Assembly: GCA_016188545.1 (NCBI GenBank)
Contig: JACPHO010000002.1
Span: 64,013 to 128,012, forward strand
Source of the DNA: Candidatus Shapirobacteria bacterium
GTDB taxonomy: Bacteria > Patescibacteriota > Microgenomatia > UBA12405
DNA length: 64,000 nt
Reading direction: 5' to 3'
Of the stretch, positions 20,300 to 61,218 are shown one piece after another. The position numbers and the translations under genes were made by a program. The notes beneath the pieces were generated by a model. The model was not told the DNA's origin and ran no database searches. It saw only the letters and a program-made list of their open reading frames with translations. Within the stretch, counting starts at the first letter, position 1. Each line of letters begins with the position of its first letter.

Positions 20300-20354
20300 A
20301 TCCAAAAGCCATGCCTACCGGCAGGCAGGTAAAAAATAAAAAGCAAAAACAATA

Positions 20355-22973: not shown

Positions 22974-22994
22974 GTGAACTGTATAATAAATTGA

Positions 22995-27258: not shown

Positions 27259-27284
27259 AAATTCAAAAGTAAAAAGTAAAAAAT

Positions 27285-30403: not shown

Positions 30404-31756
30404 TTAAAAGGTCGACTTGATTTGGTTGATAAGTGTCCGCAATTGTGGATTAGTTGATAAGTCGGCGGCAACCTTGTCTCGGGCGTGCATGATACTGGTG
30501 TGATCCCGACCACCTAAAAGATGACCAACTTCTTTTAGAGGTAGGTTGATTTCATTGAGAAGGAGGTAGGCGGTAAGATGGCGGGCGGTGACTAAGTCTT
30601 TACGTCGACTGTTACCGCACAGTTCACTAGTTTTTAGATTAAAGTGTTTAGCACAAACGGAAATTATATGGCGAGGAGTGACTTTTTGAGAAAAGGTTGA
30701 GGCTGATGGAGAATCCGGGCTGAGAAAACTTTCAACAGTCTCAATGGTAATTGTGTGGATATTCTGGGATAGAGCAATGGCAGCAAGCTGCTGGACTTTA
30801 CCTTCGATATCTCGAGTGTTTGATTGGAGGTTATCAGCTAGAAACTGAGTGGCATCTGAGGCAATGACTATCCCCTTTTCGTTCGCTTTTTGGGTGATAA
30901 TAGCTGACCTCATTTCATAATCTGGGGGTTGGATGTCAACTGTTAATCCACCCATAAAACGTGAAACTAGCCGATCTTCTAGATCTTTAATATCGGATGG
31001 TTTACGATCCGAAGTGAGAATAACTTGCTTGCCGGCCATGTGAAGGGCATTGAAAGTGTGGAAAAATTCTTCTTGGGTGTAATCTTTACCGGCTATAAAC
31101 TGGATATCATCGACCAGGATACAGTCGAGATGGCGATATCTTTCTTTGAATTGATTGATGGATTTTGATTTTAGAGCTGCAATAAGCTCATTTCCAAAAG
31201 TTTCGGCGGGAAAGTATTTTATTTTGAGCGAAGAATTATTCTTGAGTAATTCATGTCCGATAGCTTGCATTAAGTGGGTTTTTCCAACCCCTACCCCACC
31301 CCAAATAAAGAAGGGATTGTAGGAAAGTCCGGGATTTTTGACGATTCCTTGGGCGGCGGCATAAGCGAAGTTATTACTGTTACCAACAATTAGATTTTCA
31401 AATGTGTATTTGGGGTGTAAGTTGGAACGGATAGAGTTGCTGTTTTGGATGGATGGTGGATTGTAAGTAAATAATGGGCCAGCTGGAGTGGCGACTGACT
31501 CGGCTTTAATAGGTTCTTGAACGATGAATTCAAGACTGTTGCTATTCTTGGTTTGGTTATCGAGAGCACTTTTAAAGAAAGAGTAGTACCTTTTTTGATT
31601 TATATCTGCGAGGTAGGCATTGGAACAGGCAATAGTAGCGACATTATTAGAGATGGCAATTAACTGAGTTTTTATTATAAAGGTCTGGTAAATTGAAGGC
31701 GCCAAAATTACATGAAGTTCCTCCTGAGTATTTTTCCAAAGTTGATCTAAGTCCAT
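30404..31756 (-). CDS. dnaA: Chromosomal replication initiator DnaA
   Basis: Walker A GGVGVGKTHLM. Box VII DDIQFIAGK. C-terminal DNA-binding HTSIMHARDKV. The ORF extends to 31843 but the extra 29 aa (…YVFTFYFLLFTLEV) come from an (AAAAGT)n repeat. The likely start is Met at 31756 (MDLDQLWKNTQEEL). Confidence 0.9.
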   Translation of the reverse strand: MDLDQLWKNTQEELHVILAPSIYQTFIIKTQLIAISNNVATIACSNAYLADINQKRYYSFFKSALDNQTKNSNSLEFIVQEPIKAESVATPAGPLFTYNPPSIQNSNSIRSNLHPKYTFENLIVGNSNNFAYAAAQGIVKNPGLSYNPFFIWGGVGVGKTHLMQAIGHELLKNNSSLKIKYFPAETFGNELIAALKSKSINQFKERYRHLDCILVDDIQFIAGKDYTQEEFFHTFNALHMAGKQVILTSDRKPSDIKDLEDRLVSRFMGGLTVDIQPPDYEMRSAIITQKANEKGIVIASDATQFLADNLQSNTRDIEGKVQQLAAIALSQNIHTITIETVESFLSPDSPSASTFSQKVTPRHIISVCAKHFNLKTSELCGNSRRKDLVTARHLTAYLLLNEINLPLKEVGHLLGGRDHTSIMHARDKVAADLSTNPQLRTLINQIKSTF

Positions 31757-31852
31757 GGGAGAAACTTCTAAAGTAAAAAGTAAGAAATAAAAAGTAAAAA
31801 CATAGTATAGATACGTTAAATTTAAACAACGATACTGGGGCAAAGTTTCGAG

Positions 31853-31884
31853 TTATCCACATCATAATAAATTAGTTTTCCACA
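31853..31884. promoter_or_regulatory. DnaA boxes upstream of dnaA (TTATCCACA 31853-31861, TTTTCCACA 31876-31884)
   Basis: One perfect consensus DnaA box and one 8/9 match in the dnaA 5' region. Coding-strand bias switches here. Confidence 0.55.
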
Positions 31885-46832: not shown

Positions 46833-46925
46833 CGTAAAACGTAATATGTAACACGTAAAACGTAATACGTAACATGTAACACGTAATACGCAATCAGTAA
46901 AATGTAACAAGTAACAAGTAACAAG
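46833..46925. repeat. Degenerate tandem 8-mer array (GTAAYAYG / GTAACAAG) in a divergent intergenic region
   Basis: cgtaaaacgtaatatgtaacacgtaaaacgtaatacgtaacatgtaacacgtaatacg…gtaacaagtaacaagtaacaag lies between the divergently transcribed 563-aa and AAA-ATPase genes. Confidence 0.6.
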
Positions 46926-47066: not shown

Positions 47067-48329
47067 TTGATCGTTGACATAACAATGATTCTAGTACTAA
47101 AATATGATATGAAAATAACAAATAGAGATGATTTTGAGAGAATTTTGCCAACAAAGGTAATTAATAGAAAAATTCACAGTGAATTTATTGAAAGTATGGA
47201 TCGGGAAGAAGTGAGCATTTTGTATGGGGCTAGACAGGTGGGAAAAAGTGTGGAGGTGTGGCAAACAATAAAGGAACTGTTTGACAGGGGTCCGTCCGAA
47301 GTATTTTATTATAACTTTGATGAAATACCGAGTGATGCAAATAATCCAGATGTATTTTTGAATTCTATTTTATCCCAAATGACGACTAAAAAATGTTTTG
47401 TCTTTATTGACGAGGCACAAAGAAAAACAGATGTGGGGAAATGGATAAAATATATGTACGATCAAAAAAAGGGGATTAAATGGGTATTGACTGGGTCGGC
47501 CTCATTGGAACTGAAAAATAAAACAAAAGAATCGCTTGTGGGGAGAAAAATTGAGTTTTACTTGAGTTCACTTGATTTGATGGAAATATTGGGTGATATG
47601 AACATTGATGTTAAGAATATTACGGGAAGATTCGAAAAACTGGACCAGATAGTTGAAGAATACCTGCGGTTTGGTGGGTATCCTGGAGTTTACCAACAAG
47701 TTAGCGCAATAAATAAAATCGAAAAATTAACAGAAGTCGCGGAGACTTATTTGATTTCTGATTTGGCAAACATGTATGGAATTCAAAATAAAGATAGTTT
47801 GAGGCTGGTGGCGAGTTTTGTGGGAGAAAACGTGGGAAGTGTGCTGAGTAAAGATAATATCGCTAAAGTAACAGCTTTGAAAAAAAATGAGGTAGAAAAA
47901 GTACTTGAGGCGTTGGAAGGAGGGTTTGTAGTGAGAAAAATAAAGACTTTTTCAACTGATAGTACAAAAGAGTTGATACATCGTCCAAAAGTATTTTTTG
48001 AAGATTTGGGGATTAGAAATGCATTATTACGGAAACTTGAAGAGGGAAGATTGATGACTGAAAAAGGGAAATTGTGGGAAAATCTGGTGGTAAATTTGGC
48101 GGCAAATAAATGGGGGTGGAGAAATATTCGATATTGGCGGACTATAAATCAGACGGAGGTTGATGTGGTGGTAGTAAAAGATAATGGAAGACTGGAGGTA
48201 ATCGAGGCAAAGTATTCGACGATAGAATATATACCTAAAAATGTAGCCAGTTTTAGTGAGAAATACAGAGATTTGGTAGATAATGTAACAATTGTGAGCC
48301 GAGATAACTGGTGGGGGATGTTGAGTTAA
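47067..48329 (+). CDS. AAA-domain ATPase with C-terminal DUF4143-like domain
   Basis: Walker A ILYGARQVGKSVEV. Walker B CFVFIDEAQR. C-terminal RYWRTINQTEVDVVVVKDNGRLEVIEAKYS is typical of this family. Start may be the internal Met (MKITNRDDF). Confidence 0.7.
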   Translation: MIVDITMILVLKYDMKITNRDDFERILPTKVINRKIHSEFIESMDREEVSILYGARQVGKSVEVWQTIKELFDRGPSEVFYYNFDEIPSDANNPDVFLNSILSQMTTKKCFVFIDEAQRKTDVGKWIKYMYDQKKGIKWVLTGSASLELKNKTKESLVGRKIEFYLSSLDLMEILGDMNIDVKNITGRFEKLDQIVEEYLRFGGYPGVYQQVSAINKIEKLTEVAETYLISDLANMYGIQNKDSLRLVASFVGENVGSVLSKDNIAKVTALKKNEVEKVLEALEGGFVVRKIKTFSTDSTKELIHRPKVFFEDLGIRNALLRKLEEGRLMTEKGKLWENLVVNLAANKWGWRNIRYWRTINQTEVDVVVVKDNGRLEVIEAKYSTIEYIPKNVASFSEKYRDLVDNVTIVSRDNWWGMLS

Positions 48330-48394: not shown

Positions 48395-50542
48395 ATGGCG
48401 ATTGACAAAATTGGCTTGAGGTACATTCCCAGTGAGGCTGTGTTTGTTGGGGAAAAAGTGGTTGATGAAGCATGGAAAAAAGTAGTAGTTGAGAATGCGG
48501 AAATAGCCCGAAGAGAAGTTTTGGGGGTAACTGATACACCCAGAGCTAGAGATGGAATAAATTTGATTTTTAAAAATCTCAATGTGATGACTGGTGGTTC
48601 ATATGGAAATGCGAATGAGTTAGTGGATGCTGTAGAAAATGACCCGGGTAATGAAAACTTGGCTTTAGGACAATTGATGTTGGCCCAAAGTGTGTATTTG
48701 GCAATGAGGGATGGGGGAAATGTAAAAATGGAGGGGGCTTTGGCATCGGGTACGGCTACAACTATTGAAAATGAACTGCCGGCAAGACTAAAAGGGATCG
48801 CAAGAGAAGTGAGAAACTTGGAAATAACAAGTCCTAAATATAGAAATATCTTGGATGAGATGGATGCAAATGCAGCACTTGATAAATGGCAAAAACTTCC
48901 ACCCTCTGTAGATGAACAAAGGAAACTGCTGGAGATGGCTATGACTTCTTTGAAGACTGGTGGTAATGGACCTGTAAATGATGAAGAAAAAAGGGAATAC
49001 AGCCTGGTAGTTAGAAGTTTGAGAGCAAGATTGAATATTTTGGATGCGGGTGGAGATAACGCATTGTTAGTACATTTTGTAAATGAAAAAAAAGAGAGAG
49101 AAAGTAGTGTCGTTGATCAACTTAGGCAGAGAGCCGAAGAAGGATCAAGGCAAAAGGCTGATTATTTTAAGGCTATGGCCGGTGGAGCAACGCCTGATTC
49201 GTTTGTCTCGCCAAGTTCGCCAATGGCCCCTGAGTGGTTGAAAGGGATGGAGCCGAGACATGCTTTGTTACTGACGGAATTAAACAACGCTTCATTTATG
49301 TTGGGTAGGGTTTCGGGAATTGGTGAAGTCGTTCAAGGAAGTGGATTATTTAGAACAGATGATGATGGGATGGATTTTTTATTGAACCAAACACCAGGCG
49401 CCAGAGAGGCATTTGCTTTTATTTTACAAACATATTTTGACCCCGTAGACGAAGAAGGAAATATTTTCGACCCAAGTGTTGATAGAAGATCTATCGTAAA
49501 TGTAAGGCTCAAAGTGGATGACAAAGTACTAATGAGTGACTTTGTCGGAAATAGAGTATTTGACAATGTAAAAGGTTACCTTGTAGGAATGAGGCCACCA
49601 ATAGATTTTGGTGATGGTATTTTGGGGAAAGAAGCTGGGTCGTCAATGGCGGTTGGGGTAGTTTTGGCGTTATCTAGGGTTGGTTTTATGTTTAATGATG
49701 CTGACCCGAAAAGAAAAATGGGAAAATCTAACTTGCAAAATCAGGTATGGAATGCAAATTATCCGGCAGCTAAAGGGGCGCAGAAATTTAAAAAAGCTGA
49801 GCCTTGGGCAGGGTCCCAGGGAGATTGGTTGTTCGCTAGGCAACAAGGGGCAGTAACCGTTTCAAAAAATCAAGCTAAAGAGATAGAATTTGTAGAACGT
49901 TGGGAGAGTGGTGAGATTAATCCTTTGCCGGAAAGATTGATGATAAATTTTTTTGCAAATACAGAAGTGACGACTGCTACTAGTGGTAAAGTATCAATGA
50001 TTGAAGCGTTGTATTTTGGTTATGAAATAATATATGAACAAGGTAGCAATGACGATTGGGTATCTTATCAAGATGTGGTTAGAGCTGCGGCCGGTGCATT
50101 TGAATATATGAAAGGCGGTGATAAGCAAAAGTTAATGTTGGGAAAAAATGAAGGTGAGTGGGCTAATGGAATTAGGTCTATAGTATCTGACTTGAGTAAA
50201 AATGAAGAATTGGCACCTCAGTTTAGTAATGAACCGTTAATGAGTGGTGGAAAATGGGTTGGACCAAGTCCGCTGGCAGAACGGATGTTGTGGTTTATTG
50301 GAGCGTGTGGTGGGCTGGCAAACATTCCAGACTTAATTGTGACTCAGGGGGCAGATAAGTTTCAGGATAATGCGATGCGAAATGTGGTGGATACTACTGC
50401 AATGAAAATAATGTTGCCCAATGAGGCCGATAGAGAATGGATCCTTAAACAATTAAGTTGTGACGGTAAAGGTCAGATACAGATTGAGAAAAATAAATGG
50501 AAAAGAAGATCATTATTGGGATTGCCTAACAGTATTCTCTGA
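48395..50542 (+). CDS. Large hypothetical cytoplasmic protein (715 aa)
   Basis: Clean long ORF with no TM segment and no motif recognised. Convergent with the VirB6-like gene. Confidence 0.5.
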   Translation: MAIDKIGLRYIPSEAVFVGEKVVDEAWKKVVVENAEIARREVLGVTDTPRARDGINLIFKNLNVMTGGSYGNANELVDAVENDPGNENLALGQLMLAQSVYLAMRDGGNVKMEGALASGTATTIENELPARLKGIAREVRNLEITSPKYRNILDEMDANAALDKWQKLPPSVDEQRKLLEMAMTSLKTGGNGPVNDEEKREYSLVVRSLRARLNILDAGGDNALLVHFVNEKKERESSVVDQLRQRAEEGSRQKADYFKAMAGGATPDSFVSPSSPMAPEWLKGMEPRHALLLTELNNASFMLGRVSGIGEVVQGSGLFRTDDDGMDFLLNQTPGAREAFAFILQTYFDPVDEEGNIFDPSVDRRSIVNVRLKVDDKVLMSDFVGNRVFDNVKGYLVGMRPPIDFGDGILGKEAGSSMAVGVVLALSRVGFMFNDADPKRKMGKSNLQNQVWNANYPAAKGAQKFKKAEPWAGSQGDWLFARQQGAVTVSKNQAKEIEFVERWESGEINPLPERLMINFFANTEVTTATSGKVSMIEALYFGYEIIYEQGSNDDWVSYQDVVRAAAGAFEYMKGGDKQKLMLGKNEGEWANGIRSIVSDLSKNEELAPQFSNEPLMSGGKWVGPSPLAERMLWFIGACGGLANIPDLIVTQGADKFQDNAMRNVVDTTAMKIMLPNEADREWILKQLSCDGKGQIQIEKNKWKRRSLLGLPNSIL

Positions 50543-50544
50543 AA

Positions 50545-52071
50545 TTATTTGCGTTTTACCCAGCCAAACAGTCCGGCGGTGTCACCAGCGGCATTTCTTA
50601 ATTTATCGCCAGTAGTAAGATTACCTGCATTATTGGGATCGTTATAGTATTCTTGTTGTTTTTGAGAGGCCAGTTGGGCACCAAGACGACCAGCTCCAGT
50701 AACAGGTGCAAAGGCACCTTTTGTACCTTCACCAATCGCCTTACCCCAGGGAGATGGTTTGATGGCGAAGACAAACTCAGGGATCATTTCAGGCAGTTTT
50801 GAGACTAGGGCAATTACTGAAAGACCAATACCGACAGAAATAATACTAGGTAGATTGGCCGTACCAAGCCCCCATGAGGTAAGGGCAGTGGGAATTGACA
50901 TGTTGGAAATGACGCTAGGAGCCCACATACCTTTTTTGGAAAAATCGACCAGCATGTTGCCAACTACCATGAAAATAAGTGACACAGGGAAAATGGCAAG
51001 ATTGGCGATAAGATCCCAAATCCAGGTACTAAATCCCATCTTGGAATTGGGGAAGGCACCCATAGCTAGCTCAAGAGGGGCGATAACTATTTTGAAAATT
51101 ACCGTAACATAGGCCTTAAGACAGCCAAAATAAAACTTGAACATCCAGATAACAACAAGGATTAGCATAACCAGTAGAACAATAACTGGAACAATTCCGA
51201 GAGCAGTAATCGACCACCCGCCAGTAGGAACGAGAAACATAGCAGCAATAATTGCACCAAGTATAAATCCCCAGTACATAAACATGGTTGTTGGTATAGC
51301 TCGGAAAGTTAAATCGGCGTAGGTACCAATACCGGCATTGGTCAGAGTGTCAAAAGAATAGTTTTTGGTGCCATCAAGAAGGTTGGCAGACAGACCTTTG
51401 CCAGTAACTTCAAAAAGCAGAGCGATAACTACACCCTGGACAAAAGTCATTAGGTCGATAAGTAAACCGGCGATAGCGTAGGAAAAAGTGACTAAAACGA
51501 GAGTGGTGATCAGTTGAGGGACAGCATTTTGGACGGTAACCACAGCTTGGGGGGAGATCTTGACCCGGAGCATAATCATGACACCGATAATGATAAAAAC
51601 AAGTGAGGAAAGCAAATAAACTATGTTACGAAAACCCCGCCAGATAGGTAAAATTGGCTGGAGACCAGCAAACCCAAAACCTTGCTGGGCATAGGCCGGT
51701 TTGCCAAGAAAACTATCCTTGAGGCCAGCCAAATATTGGAATCCAGAAGCGGGAGGAGTCCAGAGACTGGCAATCATTTGGTTGGTAAATCCCAACATGC
51801 CGGCGGGAATATAACTAGTGGCGGTGCCATTGAGAACACTGTCGGGAATCTTACCAGTGAGTATTTCTAGTGCGATAACAGCATTACTGTCAAGAGATTC
51901 TTTGAGCCAACGTTCTTGATTGTTGCCTTTGAGAATGGCGTCACTTTTCTTTTTGTAGACACTGTTTTGAGTCGGGGGAGTCTGAGCAAACAAAGGGGTG
52001 ATAAAAGAGAAAAATAAAAAACAAAAAGTAAAAATAAGAAACAGGCGACGCATGGTGAATAATTTTAACAT
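50545..52071 (-). CDS. VirB6/TrbL-like polytopic T4SS membrane protein
   Basis: Signal peptide MLKLFTMRRLFLIFTFCFLFFSFITPLFA-QTP (likely start 52071 or 52053, since the ORF extends to 52245). At least 6 TM helices. Precedes the pilin array. Confidence 0.4.
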   Translation of the reverse strand: MLKLFTMRRLFLIFTFCFLFFSFITPLFAQTPPTQNSVYKKKSDAILKGNNQERWLKESLDSNAVIALEILTGKIPDSVLNGTATSYIPAGMLGFTNQMIASLWTPPASGFQYLAGLKDSFLGKPAYAQQGFGFAGLQPILPIWRGFRNIVYLLSSLVFIIIGVMIMLRVKISPQAVVTVQNAVPQLITTLVLVTFSYAIAGLLIDLMTFVQGVVIALLFEVTGKGLSANLLDGTKNYSFDTLTNAGIGTYADLTFRAIPTTMFMYWGFILGAIIAAMFLVPTGGWSITALGIVPVIVLLVMLILVVIWMFKFYFGCLKAYVTVIFKIVIAPLELAMGAFPNSKMGFSTWIWDLIANLAIFPVSLIFMVVGNMLVDFSKKGMWAPSVISNMSIPTALTSWGLGTANLPSIISVGIGLSVIALVSKLPEMIPEFVFAIKPSPWGKAIGEGTKGAFAPVTGAGRLGAQLASQKQQEYYNDPNNAGNLTTGDKLRNAAGDTAGLFGWVKRK

Positions 52072-52072
52072 A

Positions 52073-53488
52073 TTAGAACTGCATTGATTCGGGTTGTAAT
52101 TGGCGGGCATAGGTGTTGAGAGTGTAGGGATTGCCTGGATCAAAGCTGTGACTGTCGGTGGAAGAAAAAGGACGATGGGGATCGTTGAGAGTGACGTCGG
52201 CTTCCTGGACATATTCAGGGATGAGGTTTTTGCGAGCGACTTCATCGATTTTCATATTGGCTTCCTGAGCGGGTTCGATGTGGTACTCGTAGGTGAGAGA
52301 GTGGGAGAAGGTCATAGCGGTCTCAAAGACAGTACCAAACTCTTCAAGGGACTGTTTGATGGCATAGAGCAGATCATTTGGTTTGTCGCGAATCTCATTT
52401 TTTTCATAGGTACCACAAAAATTGATGGGTGGAATGTCTTGACCGTCATAGTTGATAATGGCCAGTGAGTTAGCCGAAGCAAGAGATTCACCGCGGGGCA
52501 TGTTAGTTTTTTTGATTTCAGGGTTAACATCACGTTCATGGTCGTCGTTGTAGACAAAGACGCGACGCATACTGGGGCCACTGCCCTCAGGCCCTAAGGT
52601 TTTGTAGAGTTTGCAGGCTTCACTGGGGTCAAGAGCCTGAAAAGAGTCACTGGATGGGTCGGTAAAGTCACTGAGTCGGCCTGGAGTGGGAACGGGGAGG
52701 GAAGGATTAGTAGGATCATTGTTGTAGCAATTGTCATCGGGGTTGTAAAAGATTAGATTTTCTTCGGTGCCAGGAAGACAACGTCCAGTAGCAGGGTCGG
52801 TATTGACCAAAGATAGAGTGGGGTTTTGTTCCATGGTGATAGCAATGTCTTCGAGTTGAACTTTTTGACCGTCATCTTGATCGGAGTCGGTGACTGGTTT
52901 GGCGGAACCACCGTCGTACCAAGCAACTTGTTCATTACTGACAACTCCACCACCGGAGCCATTGGCTAATTTGACCGCTTTGACCAGTCTTTGGCCAACG
53001 AGACATTTGAGGACATCTTCGGGCATATTTTTGTTACCGGTGCCAATTGACCCTTCAGCATTGTCCGGAGTATAGGACATAAAGGAGCGGTTGATACTAT
53101 CAGTGTTGAGAAAATTCTTGGGATGGCTGTTGGTGGCTCGGTCGCGACCAAGGGCGGCAGGATTGGTCCAAAAACCTTTGTTGAATATGGGGGGACGGCC
53201 TTGGATTCGATTGACGTCGTAGGGGACAAAGGTAGTAGTTTGTTCACCAGTATTGGGATCAGTGGTGGTTTTTTCTTCAGGTTGGAAAGTTTGGGAAATG
53301 GTGAATTTACCGGTGCAAACTAGACCGACACTATTGGGATAATAGATGGAGTCATCAGAGAGAGCGGTGTCTGCAGGAGGTGAACCAGGGTCGGATCGTT
53401 TGATGATAATTGGGTTGAGAGCCAGAGCAGGAAAAGTAAAAAGTAAAAAGTTAAAAGTTAAAACAATAAATATGAAAACAGGTTTCAT
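52073..53488 (-). CDS. Secreted 471-aa protein of the T4SS/pilin locus
   Basis: Signal peptide MKPVFIFIVLTFNFLLFTFPALA-LNP encoded by an (AAAAGT)n repeat. Asp/Pro/Thr-rich mature protein. Function unknown. Confidence 0.5.
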   Translation of the reverse strand: MKPVFIFIVLTFNFLLFTFPALALNPIIIKRSDPGSPPADTALSDDSIYYPNSVGLVCTGKFTISQTFQPEEKTTTDPNTGEQTTTFVPYDVNRIQGRPPIFNKGFWTNPAALGRDRATNSHPKNFLNTDSINRSFMSYTPDNAEGSIGTGNKNMPEDVLKCLVGQRLVKAVKLANGSGGGVVSNEQVAWYDGGSAKPVTDSDQDDGQKVQLEDIAITMEQNPTLSLVNTDPATGRCLPGTEENLIFYNPDDNCYNNDPTNPSLPVPTPGRLSDFTDPSSDSFQALDPSEACKLYKTLGPEGSGPSMRRVFVYNDDHERDVNPEIKKTNMPRGESLASANSLAIINYDGQDIPPINFCGTYEKNEIRDKPNDLLYAIKQSLEEFGTVFETAMTFSHSLTYEYHIEPAQEANMKIDEVARKNLIPEYVQEADVTLNDPHRPFSSTDSHSFDPGNPYTLNTYARQLQPESMQF

Positions 53489-53896
53489 TTAGTGGCTGGG
53501 GATAATAAAGTTGGTAACGTCGGCACCGGTAATTTTTTTGATGAGTTGAAGAATTAGGTAGGAAGAGACAACACCAACTAACCCAAGAATAGACATGGTA
53601 AGAGTGGATGAGGCAGTGGCAACTCGTTTTTGATCACCACTACTAAAAAGATATTGAAAACCACCATTGATAAACATGACAAAAAAAATGATACCGGCGA
53701 GACCAACTATGACTTGGAGGATGTTACCAAAAAGACACTCGAGACCTTGGAGAGTAGCGACATCGCCTTGAGCGAGGCATTTTCCAGACCAGGTGGATTG
53801 GGCTTGGGCTGGAATAGCGAAAGAAAAAAGAAAAAAGTAAAAAGTAAAAATAAATTGGAAAAAACGATTTCTCATGGGTAGATTATACAAAATCAA
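53489..53896 (-). CDS. VirB2/TrbC-like pilin paralog 1
   Basis: Sec signal peptide (…AIPAQA-QS), then two hydrophobic helices separated by the loop FSSGDQKRVATAS. About 105-aa mature protein. Confidence 0.45.
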   Translation of the reverse strand: MILYNLPMRNRFFQFIFTFYFFLFSFAIPAQAQSTWSGKCLAQGDVATLQGLECLFGNILQVIVGLAGIIFFVMFINGGFQYLFSSGDQKRVATASSTLTMSILGLVGVVSSYLILQLIKKITGADVTNFIIPSH

Positions 53897-53941
53897 CGTT
53901 GATTTACGAAATATGATTCATGATTTAAGAATAGAACAAAA

Positions 53942-53965
53942 ATATCCCCGAGAAATCGGGGATAT
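53942..53965 (-). terminator. Perfect 10-bp stem hairpin followed (minus sense) by a T-rich tract, between pilin paralogs
   Basis: ATATCCCCGAGAAATCGGGGATAT. Read on the minus strand it is followed by TTTTGTTCTATTC, 25 nt after the stop of the 53990..54385 pilin gene. Confidence 0.55.
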
Positions 53966-53989
53966 TTTGATTTGTGATTGATTCCTTGG

Positions 53990-54385
53990 TTATTGGAAGG
54001 AAGGAACTTTGAATCCAGAGAGAAGCTGAATACCGAAAACGGTTTCGATGAGCTTCATAATGGCAAAAGCAGCAAAGACAATAGCCAAACCAATGAGGGC
54101 ATTGGTGATTTGGGCTCGGGCGGCTTCGACGGCTTTTTGATCACCTTCGGACATGACCCATTTGAGACCACCCCAGATGAGGATGAAGAAGAAAACCAGG
54201 GCGACAACCAACATAACTAAACTAATGGCACCGGAAATGATACCACCAAAGGTTAATTTGGTAAGGTTGTTCCAATTGCTGTCGTTGGGAATCAGTTTGA
54301 TATCTTGGGCGTAAACCGGAGCAGCGATAGCTGCGTATTGGACGAGATCTTTGAACTTTTGGACCATAATAGGTGTGTTTTTCAA
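53990..54385 (-). CDS. VirB2/TrbC-like pilin paralog 2
   Basis: Hydrophobic helix 1 (GGIISGAISLVMLVVALVFFFILIWGG), loop MSEGDQKAVEAARAQ, helix 2 (ALIGLAIVFAAFAIMKLI). Confidence 0.45.
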   Translation of the reverse strand: MKNTPIMVQKFKDLVQYAAIAAPVYAQDIKLIPNDSNWNNLTKLTFGGIISGAISLVMLVVALVFFFILIWGGLKWVMSEGDQKAVEAARAQITNALIGLAIVFAAFAIMKLIETVFGIQLLSGFKVPSFQ

Positions 54386-54430
54386 TAAATTATTAATAAT
54401 TAGCTAATTGTAACAGTAAAGTAAATAAAA

Positions 54431-54820
54431 TTAAAGTGTAGGCCAAGTGATGGTAAGAGTGCTTAGTCCAGGGATACCAAGGACTATACCGACAAACTTG
54501 AGGATGGCAAAAATAGAAAAAACGACAAACAGACCGATGGTGGCATAAGTCATTTCATTCTTGCCTGACTCCCACCTTTTGGGATCACCCTCAGAGGCGA
54601 TCAGGTGATAGCCAGCAAAAACTATGTGCCAAACATAGTAAATTATGCCGACAATGAAAAAGATGGAAAAAACGGTTGAAAGGACGCTGTTAAAATAGGT
54701 TTTGGGAGCTGTAGAAGAGGTACAGTTTTTGAGAATGGGATTGCAAATGACCGCATGGACTGGGGTAGAAAAGTAAAAAGTAAAAAGTAAAAAGTAAAAA
54801 GTGGAAATTAGTTTTTTCAT
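54431..54820 (-). CDS. VirB2/TrbC-like pilin paralog 3
   Basis: Signal peptide MKKLISTFYFLLFTFYFSTPVHA. Helix, loop IASEGDPKRWESGK, helix. Confidence 0.45.
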   Translation of the reverse strand: MKKLISTFYFLLFTFYFSTPVHAVICNPILKNCTSSTAPKTYFNSVLSTVFSIFFIVGIIYYVWHIVFAGYHLIASEGDPKRWESGKNEMTYATIGLFVVFSIFAILKFVGIVLGIPGLSTLTITWPTL

Positions 54821-54822
54821 AT

Positions 54823-55179
54823 TTAGAGACCCATTTGGGTGAATAAAGCATTAATGTCGAGGACATTGGTGATACCAGCCAGGGTGGCAATGAGAGAACC
54901 AAGGCCAACAGCAACGATAACAATGGTAAGACCAAGGACACCATTGGTGAGTCGGCTACGGGCAGCAGCCATATTTTTTTCGTCTCCTTGGGAGTTAATG
55001 TAAGAATAACCGGCGAGAATTATTTGAATGGCAAACCAAATAACAGCAAAGATGGTGAGAACACCAATTACTTGACCAACTATTTTTTCAAGAGCAGCGA
55101 CACCGTTGCCAGCAGGTTTGACACCTGGGCCAATGATTTCGGGAACATTAACATCAGCGAGTAGGCGATTAGGGTCCAT
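54823..55179 (-). CDS. VirB2/TrbC-like pilin paralog 4
   Basis: Same helix-loop-helix architecture with loop YINSQGDEKNMAAARS. No long signal peptide. N-terminal region may be processed differently. Confidence 0.4.
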   Translation of the reverse strand: MDPNRLLADVNVPEIIGPGVKPAGNGVAALEKIVGQVIGVLTIFAVIWFAIQIILAGYSYINSQGDEKNMAAARSRLTNGVLGLTIVIVAVGLGSLIATLAGITNVLDINALFTQMGL

Positions 55180-55555
55180 AAATGACTGGGGCTAAAATTT
55201 TAATCCCGGTAAATCTTTCGACAACCGAGGCAATTACAAAAGCGGAGGCAATAATAACCATACCGAGGATACTCTGCCAGATTTGGGTCCAAGCAGTGGC
55301 GGCAGCTTTAGGGTCGCCAGCCGAGTTGATATAAGCATATCCAGCTAGAATTAGCTGGATGATCATATAGATACCACCAATAGTACCGGCGAATTTTAGG
55401 ACATTACCTAAAAATATGAACAGGCCCTGACCGTTGGGACTGGCGTATTTGGGGAGTGGGTTGGTGATGCCACCGATGACGCCTTGAGCTTGCGCTGGCA
55501 GCGCAGAGTAAAAAGTTAAAAGTAAAAAGTTAAAAGTTAAAAAAACTTGTTTCAT
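55169..55555 (-). CDS. VirB2/TrbC-like pilin paralog 5
   Basis: Signal peptide MKQVFLTFNFLLLTFYSALPAQA-QG. Helix, loop YINSAGDPKAAATA, helix. Confidence 0.45.
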   Translation of the reverse strand: MKQVFLTFNFLLLTFYSALPAQAQGVIGGITNPLPKYASPNGQGLFIFLGNVLKFAGTIGGIYMIIQLILAGYAYINSAGDPKAAATAWTQIWQSILGMVIIASAFVIASVVERFTGIKILAPVIYGP

Positions 55556-55559
55556 TTAT

Positions 55560-55901
55560 TTATAGTCCGGAGTTTAATATTTTTAGACCAGTAGTAACTT
55601 CAACTATTTGAACTATGAAGTAAGCGGTGATCACAATGACGAAGCCAATAATAGCGTCGGTTACTAAGGCTTTGCCTTGAGCAGACTTTTTGGAATCACT
55701 ACTGCCTGCGCCAATTATAACCATTAGACCGCCAAAAATCAAAAGAATAAGTAAAATTGTGCCAGCAATGGTAAATGAGTTTTTTACGATTACCGAAATC
55801 AATGATGAAAGAGTGGGAAAAGTTTGTGAGAGAGTTTTACCTGTGCCAGTGGGTGGATCAATAGCGATGGCGAGGAGGCGATTCATGGCGTAATTATACA
55901 A
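55560..55901 (-). CDS. VirB2/TrbC-like pilin paralog 6
   Basis: 113 aa. Helix (TIAGTILLILLIFGGLMVIIGA), loop GSSDSKKSAQGKA, helix (AIIGFVIVITAYFIVQIV). Confidence 0.4.
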   Translation of the reverse strand: MYNYAMNRLLAIAIDPPTGTGKTLSQTFPTLSSLISVIVKNSFTIAGTILLILLIFGGLMVIIGAGSSDSKKSAQGKALVTDAIIGFVIVITAYFIVQIVEVTTGLKILNSGL

Positions 55902-56049
55902 TTAAATTACAAATTACAAATTTCTAATTACTAATTGATTATACAATAAAATAAAACCGCCGAATATATCGGTAAAATTTGGTATATTGACTGGTGTAAA
56001 ATGATGTTATAATACGCTCAATTAATTATAAAAAACTCCCCTACTCTTT

Positions 56050-56886
56050 ATGAGAAAAATGTGGATCTTTGTGTGGTTTTTGTGTCTAGGGTCTTTGAGT
56101 ATAAGTGCTGATGCCATTGAACGGATCAAGGTGTCACCAACAGCAACAATGACCGCAATAATGGAAACAGCTGTGGGGGAGTCAACACATCCAGTAGTAA
56201 AGATTGAGAAATGGAATGGTTTAAATACAGTAAAAGTAGCTTCAAAAGTGGCCATGAGTCGGGGGGTGTCTGAGATCACCATAGTATTGTTGCTACTTCT
56301 ACCACTTCTAGCCACCTTAATATCGGTACTCCACTATATATTTGGCTTTTCTGGATATGGAATTTTTATACCATCAATGATTGCGGTAGCATTCTTGGCT
56401 ACTGGGGTGACAGTTGGTCTGCTTTTATTTGCAATGATTTTAGTAATGTCACTTCTTAGTAATGTGATGTTGAGAAGGTTCCGACTACATTTTTGGCCAT
56501 CAAGAGCGATTAACCTGGTGTTTATATCATTGGGAACTTTGGGACTGATGTTGGTGATGTCATATGTTCCGATGGCGGAGATGAGTAAAATTTCTATTTT
56601 CCCGATACTACTAATGGTATTGTTATCAGAGGAATTTGTGAGAACTCAATTGGCTAAGAGTCGAAGTGAAGCTAAGAAGTTGACTTTGGGAACACTAATT
56701 TTGGCCGGGGTGGGAGCGGGAATGATGAGTGTAAGAGAGGTTCAAGAAGCGGTACTTTCGTATCCAGAATTGTGTTTGTTTACTGGACTCTTGATAAATC
56801 TTTTAGTCGGGAACTATAGTGGAATTAGATTGTCAGAAATAAAAAGGTTTGGAAAAGCTATTCGAAAGAAGGGAAGTATGAAGTAA
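56050..56886 (+). CDS. Polytopic (7TM-like) membrane protein with ~80-aa extracytoplasmic N-terminal domain
   Basis: Signal peptide MRKMWIFVWFLCLGSLSISADA, then about 7 TM helices. Directly upstream of the ATP-grasp cluster. 7TM proteins are known companions of RimK-like ligases. Confidence 0.45.
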   Translation: MRKMWIFVWFLCLGSLSISADAIERIKVSPTATMTAIMETAVGESTHPVVKIEKWNGLNTVKVASKVAMSRGVSEITIVLLLLLPLLATLISVLHYIFGFSGYGIFIPSMIAVAFLATGVTVGLLLFAMILVMSLLSNVMLRRFRLHFWPSRAINLVFISLGTLGLMLVMSYVPMAEMSKISIFPILLMVLLSEEFVRTQLAKSRSEAKKLTLGTLILAGVGAGMMSVREVQEAVLSYPELCLFTGLLINLLVGNYSGIRLSEIKRFGKAIRKKGSMK

Positions 56887-56912
56887 GATTTATGATTTAT
56901 GAATAGAACAAA

Positions 56913-58310
56913 ATGTTTGGAATTAACCTTAAACAATATAGACAATTTTTGACTAAAAATGAGCGGAATAAGGTATATCTAAGAAAAAACAGCTCATTAG
57001 GTAGAGCAATCGCAGATAGTAAGCATAGAACAAAGATACTTTTAGGAAAGGCTGGTGTGGGTGTACCAGCGTTAATAAAGAGATTCAGAGACAGCTTCGA
57101 GGTGGAGAAATTTAAATGGGAAAAATTAGATGGTAATTTTGTAGTTAAACCGGTATCAGGATATGGGGGGGAGGGAATACTGATAATTAGAAAAATCCTA
57201 AATCCTAAATCCCAAGTCCAAAATAAAGAGACGAGGTGGCAAATGATGGATGGGAAAATAATCTCGGAATCAGGAATAAAAAACCACTGTCAAGACATAT
57301 TAGCTGGAAAATACAGTCTACATGGCATGCCAGATACAGTACTAGTAGAAGAACGAATAAAAATTCATCCAATGTTTTTGGCGATTACAAAGTCGGGGAC
57401 TCCAGATATTAGAGTTATTGTTTATAACAAGGTACCAGTGATGGCGATGTTTAGAATTCCAACTGAAAAAAGTAAGGGTAAAGCAAACCTGCAACAAGGA
57501 GCGATGGGTCTTGGGGTAGACCTGGCAACTGGAATTACCACTTTTGGAATTGAGGGAAAAAGTGAAGAGATAAAAAAATTATATGACAGTGGTAAGAAGA
57601 AGTGGATTAAAGTCAATGGAATTAAAGTACCTTTGTGGAGAGAAATACTTGAAACAGCGGTAAATTGTCAGAAGGCAATACCAGGGCTGGGGTTTTTGGG
57701 AGTGGATGTGGTGTTGGATAAAGAAAGGGGCCCCATGGTGTTGGAGGTAAATTCGCGTCCGGGGTTGTCAATTCAAATATGTAACAAAGCTGGATTAAAA
57801 CAGAGAATGGAGAAGGTGGATGATATCGACGTGAGAAGTACAAACCATGCAGTGACTTTGGCAAAGTATTTGTTTGGTGAAAGTTTTTTTGAAAAGGTAG
57901 AGCAGAAGGAAAAAATAAAAACAGTGGAGCCTTTGGAAACAATTAAAGTAAAAATTCCTAAGGGATTTCGACCGGAACTGAGTAAAAGTCCGATTTTACG
58001 CATGGGTAAACATCGAGTGGTAGAAGTGAGGGCGAAAATTGATACAGGAGCGTTTAGAAGTTCGATTGATGTAGTCTTGGCTGAAAAGTTGGGTTTACTC
58101 CAAGATAATCGGGTACTATATTATCGACATTACCGATCATCCCTGGGGAAAAATAAAGATCGACCAGTAGTGGGAGCAACTTTTTGGCTAAATGGTAAAA
58201 AGGTAACTACGGCGGTAAACGTAGCCGATAGAGCAAAATTGAGGACAAAATTTCTCTTAGGTCGAAAAGACTTGGAGGGTTTTCTTATTAGTGCAAAAAG
58301 AGAAAAATGA
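56913..58310 (+). CDS. Alpha-L-glutamate-ligase-related ATP-grasp enzyme fused to a C-terminal retropepsin-like (DTGA) aspartic protease domain
   Basis: ATP-grasp motifs VKPVSGYGGEGILIIRK and VLEVNSRPGLSIQ. C-terminal VRAKIDTGAFRSSIDVVLAEKLGL carries the D-T-G-A aspartyl-protease signature. Contains an in-frame (AAATCCT) repeat encoding KILNPKSQ. Confidence 0.65.
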   Translation: MFGINLKQYRQFLTKNERNKVYLRKNSSLGRAIADSKHRTKILLGKAGVGVPALIKRFRDSFEVEKFKWEKLDGNFVVKPVSGYGGEGILIIRKILNPKSQVQNKETRWQMMDGKIISESGIKNHCQDILAGKYSLHGMPDTVLVEERIKIHPMFLAITKSGTPDIRVIVYNKVPVMAMFRIPTEKSKGKANLQQGAMGLGVDLATGITTFGIEGKSEEIKKLYDSGKKKWIKVNGIKVPLWREILETAVNCQKAIPGLGFLGVDVVLDKERGPMVLEVNSRPGLSIQICNKAGLKQRMEKVDDIDVRSTNHAVTLAKYLFGESFFEKVEQKEKIKTVEPLETIKVKIPKGFRPELSKSPILRMGKHRVVEVRAKIDTGAFRSSIDVVLAEKLGLLQDNRVLYYRHYRSSLGKNKDRPVVGATFWLNGKKVTTAVNVADRAKLRTKFLLGRKDLEGFLISAKREK

Positions 58311-58334
58311 TTTATGATTTAAGATTTATGATAT

Positions 58335-59345
58335 ATGAATAAAACAAAAAAACAGACAAAGGTAGCATTATTTTTTGGAGGAATGATAAGTCAACACTTG
58401 GTAATGATCCGTAAGGCAGCTAAAAAATTAGGAGTGGATCTTGACTTGGTTTCCTACAACAGAGTCTGTTTTGACAGTCAGGAAAAAAGAGTAAAAATTC
58501 GGGGAAACTTGGGAAGATGGGGGAGTGCTGAGGAATGGATCAACTTGGGAGATTATGACGTTCTTTTTTTTCGGACAACCGGAAAACACTGGGAAGAAGT
58601 AGATTTGGTGGTTAAAGAGGTGAAACAGATGAATGGTAAAAAACCAGTGATTGTTGATCCAATCATTTTAAATGGAAAACCCTCAATGGCTTGCAAAGCA
58701 TACCAAATGTTGGCACTGGGTGAAGCAGGGATTGATGTACCAAGAAGCATTTATGGAAGTTTGTGGTATTTATACGATACAATGAAAGAAATATCCAATA
58801 ACCAAATTTCAAGAAACAAACAATTACCAATATCCAAATTTCAATTTCCAATAATAATTAAAGGGTCAGGAGGAGATCGGGGGACAAGAGTATTTAAAGC
58901 AGACAACTTAGGAAAAATGGAAATTTTGGTAAGAGATTTACGAAAAACTGAAACAGAAGAAGGCAAGAGATATATGTTGCAGGAATTTATTCCAAATGAT
59001 GGGGATTTTAGAGTATTTGTATTGGGTGGAAAAGTGTTAGGAGTGATGAAGCGTTCTGCAAAGCAGAATTCAACAGAATTTAGAAATAATTATAGCGCGG
59101 GTGGAAGTGTTGAAGTGGCGGAATTACCGGTGGAAATAAAACAATTGGCGGTAAAAGCGGCTAAGGCATGCGGTCTGGCTGTGGCTGGTGTTGACGTGGC
59201 TTTTAGAAATAACGATCGAAGCCGACCGGTAATCTGGGAAGTAAACAAAGGGCCACAGTTTAAGGGGTTTATGGAAGCGACTGGGATTGATGTACCGAGA
59301 GAGATAGTTAAATATTTAGTTAGCTTACGTGATAATTCTCAATAA
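58335..59345 (+). CDS. RimK-family ATP-grasp ligase
   Basis: FRVFVLGGKVLGVMKRSAKQNSTEFRNNYSAGGSVEVAELP…CGLAVAGVDVAF…PVIWEVNKGPQFKGFMEATGIDVPREI matches the RimK core (fRv.V.ggk…R.NlhrGG…GvD…lEvN.sPg). Confidence 0.75.
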   Translation: MNKTKKQTKVALFFGGMISQHLVMIRKAAKKLGVDLDLVSYNRVCFDSQEKRVKIRGNLGRWGSAEEWINLGDYDVLFFRTTGKHWEEVDLVVKEVKQMNGKKPVIVDPIILNGKPSMACKAYQMLALGEAGIDVPRSIYGSLWYLYDTMKEISNNQISRNKQLPISKFQFPIIIKGSGGDRGTRVFKADNLGKMEILVRDLRKTETEEGKRYMLQEFIPNDGDFRVFVLGGKVLGVMKRSAKQNSTEFRNNYSAGGSVEVAELPVEIKQLAVKAAKACGLAVAGVDVAFRNNDRSRPVIWEVNKGPQFKGFMEATGIDVPREIVKYLVSLRDNSQ

Positions 59346-59347
59346 TC

Positions 59348-59397
59348 TTTTTTCTCGCTAGTCAATGTGCGGCGCATGTTGAAGGCTTCGAAAAAAA
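59348..59397. repeat. Conserved hairpin-forming intergenic element, copy 3
   Basis: TTTTTTCTCGCTAGTCAATGTGCGGCGCATGTTGAAGGCTTCGAAAAAAA. A single C-to-U change in the inner stem (G-C becomes G-U) relative to copy 2. Starts 3 nt after the RimK-like stop codon. Confidence 0.6.
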
Positions 59398-59436
59398 TAT
59401 TTTCGAATTATTACTTTTTATTAATATATATAGTAT

Positions 59437-60348
59437 ATGAACAAAAAAATCGTTACATTTACAATGTCTTTGAAGCAAAGCCAGTTTGAGGTGAATCGAC
59501 TTGAGGAAGAGGCTAATAAGCTGGGAGTGGAAGTAAACCGAGCGTTATACCGAGACTTAAGATTTGATCTAAAGAACGAAAAGCCACGAGTATTGGTTAA
59601 GGGAGAGGAAGTTACAATGGAGAATACTATAGGAATGTGGTTTAGGGTGGCAGGGACAGTTAGTGGAAAATACACCGAGGGTAGAAATTTGGCGATAAGA
59701 ATGTTAAAGAATAGAATATTTTGTGCCAATCATGCGGGATACTTGGAATGGACAAGAATGGGAAAGATTAGTCAGCATGGGGTGTTTTTGGGGAGTGGGA
59801 TACCAATCGTACCAACTAAAGTTATCTATTCAAGAGCACAAATTATAGAACTTAGAGATGAAATGGAGAGAGATTGGGGGTTTCCAATAATTGCTAAACA
59901 CGAGAGGGGTTATCAGGGGAAGAGTGTAAAAAAGTTCGACAATGCAAAACAAATGGAAAAGTGGGCAAATAAAATTCAAGAGAAAAACCTAGGTATGTTT
60001 TTATGGCAAAAATTTTTGCCAACCAGATGGGATATTCGGGTAATAGTTCTGGATGGTAAAGCTATGGGAGGAATGAAAAGATCGGCTGTTGGAAACGAGT
60101 TCAGAAGTAACTACAGCTTGGGTGGAGAAGTTCAAAAATGGGAATTATCAACTGCCGACTCTGAATTGGCGGAAAAAGTGGCTAAAATTTGTGGTCTAGA
60201 TTATTGTGGGGTAGATATTATGAAAGATGAGAGCGATAAAAGTTACATTCTGGAAGTTAACCGACAATGTCAATTCAAAGGTTTTGAAGAGTCTACTGGC
60301 ATTAATGTGGCCAAACTAGTAGTTGAAATGTTCATGAAAAGAGCATAG
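59437..60348 (+). CDS. RimK-family ATP-grasp ligase (second paralog)
   Basis: IRVIVLDGKAMGGMKRSAVGNEFRSNYSLGGEVQKWEL…CGLDYCGVDIM…SYILEVNRQCQFKGFEESTGINVAKLVV. Confidence 0.75.
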   Translation: MNKKIVTFTMSLKQSQFEVNRLEEEANKLGVEVNRALYRDLRFDLKNEKPRVLVKGEEVTMENTIGMWFRVAGTVSGKYTEGRNLAIRMLKNRIFCANHAGYLEWTRMGKISQHGVFLGSGIPIVPTKVIYSRAQIIELRDEMERDWGFPIIAKHERGYQGKSVKKFDNAKQMEKWANKIQEKNLGMFLWQKFLPTRWDIRVIVLDGKAMGGMKRSAVGNEFRSNYSLGGEVQKWELSTADSELAEKVAKICGLDYCGVDIMKDESDKSYILEVNRQCQFKGFEESTGINVAKLVVEMFMKRA

Positions 60349-60357
60349 ATTAATTGT

Positions 60358-61218
60358 ATGAGGAAAAGTTTGTTGATTACTTACTTGGTTTTGACGGTGG
60401 TTTTTGGTTTTAATTCGAGGGTGATGGCGGTAGGTGAACCAGCTAAAGAAGGTCAATTGTGTGGTGGAATTGCAGGGATAATCTGTGCTAGTGGATTGAC
60501 ATGTAAATATTCGAACAATACTGGAGTGGACAGAAGTGGGGTGTGTGTTAGAGTCTTAACTCCGACACCAAGAAGACCAGCCCAAGAAGGTCAATTGTGT
60601 GGTGGAATTGCAGGGACAATCTGTGCTAGCGGATTGAAGTGTGAAATGAATCGGTGTGGAGATGGTGGTCAGAAGTGTCCTGATGGATCCGGGGTATGTG
60701 TGAAAATGGCAACGCCGACACCAGTTAGGTTGGCGCAGGAAGGACAGGTGTGTGGTGGCATATCTGGGATAATGTGTGCCAGTGGACTAACTTGTAAATA
60801 TTCGAGTAATACAGGAACAGATAGAAGTGGGGTATGTGTGAAAAGTGTGGCGAAGGTAACTCCAACTTGTGTACCCAGACCAGCATGTTTGGACTTACCA
60901 AATCCATGTCGAATGCCGGAATTACCAGAATATTGTCGAAAACCGAGAGTAACTCCAACCTGTGTTCCAAGACCGGCGTGTTTGGATTTACCAAATCCAT
61001 GTCGAATGCCGGAATTACCAGAATATTGTCCAAAGAGAGGGGTGAAAGGTGACGCTAATGGTGATAGTAAAGTTGATCTGGCGGATTTTTCTATTTGGAA
61101 GAAAGAGTATATAGGTGAGATAAAGACAAAGAGAGCTGATTTTAACGGTGATAGTAAAGTTGATCTGGCGGATTTTTCTATTTGGAAAACTGGTTATTTA
61201 GTTAATATTAAAAAATGA
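60358..61218 (+). CDS. Secreted Cys-rich repeat protein with C-terminal dockerin-type double repeat
   Basis: Signal peptide. Four copies of a ~34-aa module (EGQLCGGIAGIICASGLTCKYSNNTGVDRSGVCV). Two near-identical VTPTCVPRPACLDLPNPCRMPELPEYC modules. C-terminal DANGDSKVDLADFSIWK twice (Ca-binding dockerin pattern). Confidence 0.6.
   Translation: MRKSLLITYLVLTVVFGFNSRVMAVGEPAKEGQLCGGIAGIICASGLTCKYSNNTGVDRSGVCVRVLTPTPRRPAQEGQLCGGIAGTICASGLKCEMNRCGDGGQKCPDGSGVCVKMATPTPVRLAQEGQVCGGISGIMCASGLTCKYSSNTGTDRSGVCVKSVAKVTPTCVPRPACLDLPNPCRMPELPEYCRKPRVTPTCVPRPACLDLPNPCRMPELPEYCPKRGVKGDANGDSKVDLADFSIWKKEYIGEIKTKRADFNGDSKVDLADFSIWKTGYLVNIKK

Follow-up and report, generated by a model that had tools for sequence, protein, structure and literature searches.

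Six divergent tandem T4SS_pilin genes upstream of a VirB6-like gene in a Candidatus Shapirobacteria genome

A stretch of 64,000 nucleotides (nt), called the window below, was analysed; it spans positions 64,013 to 128,012 of contig JACPHO010000002.1 from a Candidatus Shapirobacteria bacterium of the Microgenomatia (Patescibacteria; assembly GCA_016188545.1), and all coordinates are those of the window. It was found that its minus strand carries, from 53489 to 55901, six tandem open reading frames (ORFs) of 113, 128, 118, 129, 131, and 135 amino acids (aa), all of which encode proteins of the Pfam family T4SS_pilin (PF18895). In transcription order, these pilin genes lie upstream of a gene for a 471-aa secreted protein, which is followed by a VirB6-like gene, all in the same direction. 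It is quite probable that this region is the pilin/VirB6 half of a chromosomal type IV secretion system (T4SS) of Patescibacteria, with six distinct subunits on a VirB6-like platform. Tandem arrays of PF18895 pilins in Patescibacteria are already known, and the locus does not add a new kind of system. Three results go beyond the literature: over about 60 species, the six pilins keep a fixed order and are one-to-one orthologs, which runs against the variation hypothesis of the published survey; a large unannotated family is assigned to VirB6 by its fold; and a hypervariable slot is located.

A large part of bacterial diversity is accounted for by Patescibacteria, whose cultivated members live attached to other microbes. 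The Patescibacteria T4SS is the first that was shown to be essential for its owner, and the presence of pilin genes in a monoderm system is a puzzle.

The six pilin genes and their family

An initial annotation, made from the sequence alone, had placed six consecutive small genes on this minus strand, and the ORF list bears this out. Five of the six proteins exceed the gathering score of PF18895 (26.6 bits): pilin 1 (55560-55901) with 28.8 bits, pilin 2 (55169-55555) with 27.1 bits, pilin 4 (54431-54820) with 33.4 bits, pilin 5 (53990-54385) with 30.0 bits, and pilin 6 (53489-53896) with 37.1 bits. Pilin 3 (54823-55179) matches the family below the cut-off at 19.2 bits; it scores 115 bits with my own hidden Markov model (HMM) and has positional orthologs in more than 50 loci. 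All of the 25 orthologs collected from four genomes, including the positional orthologs of pilin 3, match PF18895 at an E-value of 1 or lower. An HMM built from these 25 orthologs was run on all six-frame ORFs of the window, and it found exactly these six and nothing else; no further pilin gene was found near virB4 by this search. Pilin 5 alone has 524 homologs, and NCBI names its close homologs 'pilin'. Judging from these sequence matches, the six proteins are members of the Patescibacterial T4SS_pilin family that are VirB2-like in topology, so that the T4SS pilin identity proposed in the initial annotation holds.

The paralogs are highly divergent. Their alignment, which the initial annotation had called for, gave pairwise identities of 20-34% in the window, with invariant G, G-D-x-K, and G positions. 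In all six, the G-D-x-K loop is flanked by two strong 19-residue hydrophobic windows on the Kyte-Doolittle scale (1.7-3.1), in agreement with the predicted architecture of two helices and a short charged loop. The Sec signal peptide that had been ascribed to all six is a different matter. It is clear, with AxA-type sites, in pilins 2 (MKQVFLTFNFLLLTFYSALPAQA), 4, and 6, weak in pilin 5, and absent in pilins 1 and 3, pilin 1 lacking a classical one. In the alignment, pilin 4 also has a conserved C-x6-C motif past the predicted cleavage site.

Are these proteins members of the classical VirB2/TrbC family? The best match to PF04956, that of pilin 2, reached 14.4 bits (E 0.044) against a gathering score of 27.9 bits, and weak matches were found for 6 of the 25 orthologs, the best having an E-value of 0.0087. 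Thus, direct membership in TrbC/VirB2, which the initial annotation had suggested, was not borne out. The NCBIfam model NF045849 (the Mbov_0395 family of Mycoplasma integrative conjugative elements, ICEs) matches all six, with E-values from 4.9e-8 (pilin 2) to 1.7e-3. The six pilins align with nearly the full 80-residue model, and both sides belong to monoderm systems of the mating-pair formation type FATA (MPF-FATA). However, with 18-32.5 bits they all fall short of the curated cut-off of 40, and the window proteins are relatives at best rather than members. A holin or phage origin was rejected: no Pfam holin was matched, and no annotated PHROG family appeared at an E-value of 0.1 or lower, the only PHROG matches being four weak ones to families of unknown function. 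Type IV pilins were rejected as well, because no prepilin leader or peptidase motif is visible in the six sequences.

The genes are tightly packed. Pilins 1 to 4 are spaced by 4, -11, and 2 nt (pilin 3 overlaps pilin 2 by 11 nt), and 45 nt precede pilin 5. A terminator-like hairpin with a 13-bp stem followed by a T run (53939-53968, minus strand) lies directly 3′ of pilin 5, and pilin 6 heads a unit with the 471-aa gene and the VirB6-like gene. Orthologs, homologs in databases, and a gene call made independently indicate that the true starts of three pilins are likely to lie inside the longest ORFs: ATG 55886 for pilin 1 (108 aa, the length of its 81% identical ortholog in L001, a related locus), ATG 54367 for pilin 5 (125 aa), and ATG 53875 for pilin 6 (128 aa, as in the gene call on a Logan contig). 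A promoter-like TTGATT..TGTATAAT lies just 5′ of the latter ATG. The extended -10-like TGTATAAT ends 5 nt ahead of the ATG in both pilin 1 (55886) and pilin 6 (53875), and thus the mRNAs of these two genes may be leaderless.

The VirB6-like protein and the order of the six genes across species

The initial annotation had pointed to a VirB6-like gene next to the array. This gene exists (50545-52053, minus strand); its product was found to be 502 aa, not 566 aa, and the pilins lie upstream of the gene rather than behind it. The longest ORF of 566 aa overlaps the upstream gene, while the NCBI call gives 502 aa starting with MRRLFLIF. The protein has a signal peptide and about eight hydrophobic segments, and is polytopic by the measure of at least five transmembrane (TM) helices. 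A Candidatus Shapirobacteria metagenome-assembled genome (MAG) encodes a 'hypothetical protein' with 100% identity to it. No Pfam domain was found among the 120 listed of its 609 homologs, and a full HMMER scan counted 3486 cluster representatives in the family.

An assignment of the window protein to VirB6 by its sequence failed, since it matched nothing in Pfam (including PF04610) or NCBIfam, and a 60-sequence profile matched nothing among PDB sequences; fold searches alone succeeded. The AlphaFold2 (AF2) model made with 60 homologs is all-helical, with a predicted local distance difference test score (pLDDT) of 80. When this model was compared with the PDB by Foldseek, the five best matches were all TrwI/VirB6 chains from the R388 T4SS, followed by DotA in sixth place. 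In addition, 2 of 41 more distant family members match PF04610 (TrbL/VirB6) at an E-value of 7e-4. With two methods supporting the fold and these weak TrbL matches in distant relatives, I assign the 502-aa protein to the VirB6 type with moderate confidence, in line with the initial annotation. The window protein differs from VirB6/TrwI of R388 and DotA of the Legionella Dot/Icm system in that its sequence is only about 11-14% identical to theirs and lacks a PF04610 match. It is also roughly double the size of TrwI, having both an extra extracytoplasmic region at its N-terminus and a tail at its C-terminus. VirB6 homologues were reported to be 'scarce' in Microgenomatia, probably through divergence (PMC12102498), and the VirB6-type reading fits this report. 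The family of 3486 representatives called 'hypothetical' is likely to be the missing VirB6 of Microgenomatia, which HMM surveys seldom find.

Is the array of six common in related species? One genome per species was scanned with the profile of the VirB6-like protein, which gave 80 loci, nearly all from Shapirobacteria or Microgenomates. In the scanned loci, the pilin genes are always tandem, co-oriented, and located just upstream of the VirB6-like gene. Each pilin was given the type of its best match among the six window paralogs, the median margin between the best and the second-best type being 65 bits. The order 1-2-3-4-5-6 was found in 55 of the 61 species loci with complete upstream DNA. 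The six exceptional loci all have extra type-5 calls: 1234556 (n=1), 12345556 (n=2), and 123556 (n=3). The comparison with related genomes, proposed in the initial annotation, thus revealed the same order in most species and a preserved linkage to the VirB6-like gene. A hydrophobic N-terminal segment is frequent across species in type 6 only (55%, by a crude measure).

Over four genomes, orthologs are 47-93% identical, compared with 25-38% between paralogs, and synteny of the pilin locus was seen in four long contigs. Between the window and L001, the pilins are 72-93% identical and FtsH is 84% identical; the pilins are therefore about as conserved as FtsH. The VirB6-like protein follows with 68%, the 471-aa protein with 52%, and a convergent 715-aa protein downstream with 26%. 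Type 5 (93%) is the most conserved pilin and the sole type varying in copy number between species. To judge from these comparisons, the six pilins are an ancient ordered set under purifying selection, and diversification sits in the slot of the 471-aa secreted protein and in the convergent gene, not in the pilins. Fast-evolving, probably host-facing parts are placed in the slot beside the pilins. Since the set is fixed, ordered, and strongly conserved in Shapirobacteria, any model has to account for six distinct subunits instead of variants.

Known systems, the proposed assembly, and its rivals

Quinonero-Coronel et al. (2025) described 441 VirB2-like arrays of 2-11 genes in 383 Patescibacteria assemblies, with a mean identity of 25% (PMC12102498), and such arrays occur especially in Microgenomatia and Saccharimonadia (PMC12102498). 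In Southlakia epibionticum ML1, a series of predicted pilins within the T4SS cluster is essential (Wang et al. 2023, PMC10633639), and their number is six according to a review (PMC12857230), the same as in the window. Tandem copies, six of which the initial annotation had regarded as unusual, are therefore on record for 383 assemblies (PMC12102498), and an array of this very size is essential in a Saccharibacterium (PMC10633639, PMC12857230). The window array belongs to the same Pfam family as the surveyed ones and to the same phylum, falls within the range of 2-11 genes, fits the enrichment in Microgenomatia, and has a paralog identity of 20-34% against the published mean of 25%. The window T4SS is likewise chromosomal, of the MPF-FATA type, and near dnaA, with no relaxase found in the window. 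It differs from the surveyed arrays in its place: the pilins are not next to virB4 but accompany the VirB6-like gene at a distance of 24 kb, which exceeds the ±20 coding sequences covered by the survey.

The VirB2/TrbC pilins (PF04956; Agrobacterium VirB2 and R388 TrwL) resemble the window pilins in size and in having two hydrophobic helices around a short polar loop, preceded by a leader that is clear in three of the six window pilins, and in diderm MPF-T systems their genes likewise adjoin a lytic transglycosylase slot and a VirB6-type gene. In contrast, the window pilins have no significant sequence or profile similarity to them and form six distinct paralogs instead of one major pilin; moreover, the window organism belongs to a group reported as monoderm (PMC12857230), and VirB5 was not recognised in the window. 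Several divergent tandem VirB2-like genes are also found in the T4SS of Bartonella and Anaplasma (via PMC12102498), which, like Patescibacteria, are host-dependent. Those arrays are read as antigenic variation, while the window set, with its strict positional orthology and high conservation, points to fixed distinct roles.

The following assembly is proposed. The six pilins would be a fixed set of distinct, non-interchangeable subunits that insert into the membrane, from which the VirB6-like platform would take them up; in the R388 system, VirB6 is the site of VirB2 recruitment for pilus growth. Together they may form a single heteromeric structure, either pilus-like or a channel, that VirB4 would power. 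Type 5 would be the major subunit. It is the best candidate because it is the most conserved type, the sole duplicating one, and is followed by a terminator. The slot after pilin 6 would supply a lineage-specific secreted factor, often a peptidoglycan hydrolase, to cross or attack the cell wall. The analogy of Southlakia epibionticum suggests that the system is probably used for an epibiotic lifestyle rather than for conjugation.

Several points weigh against this picture. Direct homology to VirB2 could not be demonstrated: the Pfam scores are sub-threshold, the profile of 25 pilin sequences matched nothing among PDB sequences, and hhalign of the 25 pilins against seven annotated VirB2/TrbC sequences gave a probability of 1.25% (E 0.042), the alignment being topologically collinear. 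No coupling protein and no relaxase were found in the window. The 471-aa protein has no assignable function, and the major role of type 5 and the heteromeric assembly are inferred from conservation and gene layout alone. To my knowledge, no pilus or T4SS structure has been seen in this lineage. Extracellular pilus assembly of such pilins has been shown for no Patescibacterium (PMC12857230).

One rival holds that the six are interchangeable variants of one pilin, which serve to change the surface or to match host strains. Such antigenic or host-range variation was proposed for the VirB2 paralogs that Bartonella and Anaplasma carry, and the published survey raises it tentatively for Patescibacteria (PMC12102498). 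The low identity among paralogs (20-34%) would suit it, and the 5′ coding heptamer arrays of pilins 2, 4, and 6 described below could in principle switch single genes. The comparison of species argues in the opposite direction, since in 55 of 61 species loci each pilin has its one-to-one ortholog at the corresponding place of the array, orthologs (47-93%) are far closer than paralogs (25-38%), and pilin conservation equals that of FtsH (72-93% where FtsH has 84% in L001). In addition, there are no lineage-specific expansions except for type 5, and change is concentrated in the 471-aa slot and the 715-aa gene. I therefore consider this explanation quite improbable. Of the antigenic or functional diversification suggested in the initial annotation, the antigenic side is contradicted by these data, and six distinct roles, the functional side, are favoured.

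It is somewhat less improbable, but still unlikely, that the six proteins are membrane-embedded parts of a translocon without an extracellular filament, as would fit a Gram-positive (MPF-FATA) ancestry. T4SSs of Gram-positive bacteria generally have no pili (PMC12102498, PMC10633639), the best family match outside Patescibacteria is the small Mycoplasma ICE protein of NF045849, three of the six pilins lack a clear cleavable leader, and no VirB5-like tip protein was recognised in the Pfam and NCBIfam scans of the window proteins. Against this stand the two-helix hairpin with a short charged loop, which is the topology of conjugative pilins, and the fact that VirB6 is the pilin recruitment platform in the solved R388 systems, the top fold matches here. 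A short stalk and a long pilus are not told apart by the present evidence. The least probable explanation, to which I give hardly any weight, is that unrelated small membrane proteins (holins, type IV pilins, or bacteriocin-immunity proteins) mimic the pilin topology. Proteins of about 120 aa with two TM segments are common in many families, and weak chance matches to several membrane families did occur. However, 25 of 25 orthologs match T4SS_pilin, no prepilin-peptidase motif is visible, and the linkage to a VirB6 fold and a wall hydrolase is constant in related loci whose upstream region is present. The initial annotation had named a holin-like family as a possible refutation; no holin or phage family was matched in Pfam or PHROGs. 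The set of distinct subunits on a VirB6-like platform is thus preferred to all three.

The VirB4 module, variable neighbours, and heptamer arrays

The other T4SS genes of the window are on the plus strand. They encode a PrgI/VirB3-like protein (18575-19504; PF12666 PrgI, 24.4 bits, just under the 27-bit cut-off), a TrsD/TraD-like conjugative transfer protein (19580-20299; NF041427 TrsD, E 4.4e-11, under the family cut-off), a VirB4-type ATPase (20355-22973; PF19044 P-loop_TraG, 101.6 bits; AAA_10, 41.2 bits), and a 1156-aa membrane protein (22995-26465). This module (18575-26465) ends 24 kb from the pilin/VirB6 module, as the initial annotation had stated. In the 1156-aa protein, a long cytoplasmic region at the N-terminus is followed by a TM region and, at the C-terminus, by a C39-like peptidase domain (PF13529 Peptidase_C39_2, 25.6 bits), which makes it a candidate wall hydrolase of the T4SS. 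It is followed by three small membrane protein or lipoprotein genes (26469-27584, plus strand), and these four may be further T4SS parts, VirB1- or VirB8-like.

Between the two modules lie dnaN and dnaA on the minus strand and rpmH, rnpA, yidD, yidC, and jag on the plus strand. The dnaA gene is at 30404-31843, and clusters of DnaA boxes are at 30339-30391 and 31853-31884. The gene order dnaN-dnaA / rpmH-rnpA-yidC-jag and the DnaA boxes support the earlier claim that the T4SS is split by an origin-type layout. T4SS halves flanking such a layout were also reported for Microgenomatia in the survey (PMC12102498). On the other hand, the claim that both modules oppose the local strand bias does not hold. 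GC skew is positive along the whole plus strand of the window, and third-position skew is positive for 46 of 46 genes of either orientation (0.04-0.77). It rises over the dnaA/rpmH region, from about 0.35 on the left of dnaA to about 0.55-0.6 on the right. Since no sign change was found at dnaA, the pilin module alone runs against the G-rich strand. A very asymmetric or unidirectional replication, or a skew of non-replicative origin, is possible.

An origin-spanning inversion or separate acquisitions had been offered as the cause of the split. An inversion symmetric about the origin leaves gene orientation relative to replication unchanged and thus explains nothing here. Over 84 related loci, the pilin module is flanked by an ATP-grasp/7TM_transglut operon in 61, by FtsH in 62, and by DUF4012 in 43, while VirB4, PrgI, and TrsD were found within 10 kb of it in none. 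A recent inversion or separate acquisition was therefore rejected; the flanks being conserved (43-62 of 84 loci) and VirB4 being absent from the vicinity in all 84, the separation of the pilin and VirB4 modules is old and fixed.

The slot between pilin 6 and the VirB6-like gene is 0.7-8 kb long across species. In other species, it holds proteins with SpoIID, SLT, VanY, CHAP (weak), or GH5 domains, and cell-wall hydrolases are frequent among its occupants. In the window, it holds the 471-aa gene (52073-53488, minus strand), whose product has an N-terminal hydrophobic leader; that this protein and the polytopic protein adjoin the array in the same direction agrees with the initial annotation. 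Only about 20 of 72 loci contain a recognisable homolog of the 471-aa protein, and a separate homolog search gave 12. No family match was found in Pfam, NCBIfam, or PHROGs, the AF2 model made from the 12 homologs is poor (pLDDT 54), and comparison with the SLT and SpoIID proteins in the slot of one relative (L002) reached an E-value of 0.01 only. The protein is possibly a wall-active or host-binding factor. The convergent 715-aa protein (48395-50542, plus strand) has no signal peptide or TM segment and no family match in Pfam or PHROGs. The position of its gene is conserved, but its sequence is recognisable in only about 14 of 72 loci and is evolving very fast. It may be a fast-evolving effector-like protein, and its membership of the T4SS is uncertain.

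Two neighbouring loci deserve mention. A gene for an AAA_14/DUF4143 ATPase (47067-48329, plus strand) lies between DUF6909 and the 715-aa gene and is not at this place in the four relatives L001-L004. Related copies lie at other variable spots of the locus in five relatives (L030, L047, L033, L050, and L056), which suggests that the gene is mobile or often inserted. An operon divergent from the pilin array (56050-63209, plus strand) encodes 7TM_transglut, an ATPgrasp_ST fused to a RimB-like Zn protease, two RimK-like ATP-grasp proteins, and dockerin and cohesin proteins. It is next to the pilin array in about 61 related loci, and it is conceivable that the operon is functionally linked to the pilins, for example by peptide modification.

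Twenty-seven tandem arrays of period 7 with differing units were found in the window, most of them 30-37 nt long (4.3-5.3 copies). Nearly all are at gene boundaries or within the first 13-43 nt of ORFs; examples are 4441-4472, 14037-14069, 27251-27282, 46833-46923, 54769-54802, 55904-55936, and 58307-58338. In the pilin module, AAATTAC x4.7 (in plus-strand reading) immediately precedes pilin 1 at 55904-55936 and falls within the promoter region of the pilin array. Other arrays encode the hydrophobic core of the signal peptide in pilin 2 (55507-55542), pilin 6 (53820-53854), the 471-aa gene (53432-53463), and the VirB6-like gene (52010-52034), and 4.9 perfect copies of ACTTTTT encode the signal peptide of pilin 4 (54769-54802). 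These five coding arrays consist of ACTTTTT and its variants, and the encoded core reads TFYFLLF... L001 likewise carries arrays at these positions, but they are built from different units. In the species comparison, arrays were found repeatedly upstream of type 1 (10 of 56 species loci) and type 5, as well as within the 5′ end of type 6.

Because 7 is not a multiple of 3, slippage within such an array would shift the reading frame, and the arrays in signal-peptide sequences are candidate phase-variation switches. The strain has only one other assembly, Logan contig L091; its sequence is identical and stops within the pilin-4 array, so it is uninformative on copy number. A combined picture, with type 5 as the major subunit and five specialised types forming a hetero-oligomer on the VirB6-like platform and the heptamer arrays acting as slipped-strand on/off switches, is tentative and, taken as a whole, rather doubtful. 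The known conjugative pili are homopolymers of one VirB2-type subunit, and I know of none built as a hetero-oligomer of six types.

Short arrays are also frequent in related Shapirobacteria loci (1.38 Mb), with periods of 7 (n=277), 9 (n=246), and 12 (n=141). In the window, the commonest unit is AAAAGTA, with about 16 sites from 13070 to 55543, all in one orientation. The pattern CTTTTTACTTTTTACTTTT, with up to 3 mismatches, has 40 overlapping matches against 0.35 expected by chance. Every one of these matches is a minus-strand match, whether left or right of dnaA; the strand polarity is not reversed at the presumed origin. Finally, many loci of the Shapirobacteria type among the related ones (L007-L082) are labelled as 'uncultured Gammaproteobacteria', 'Lactobacillales', or 'Candidatus Methanoperedens' MAGs. 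To judge from the genes that they carry, such titles are probably erroneous or serve as placeholders.

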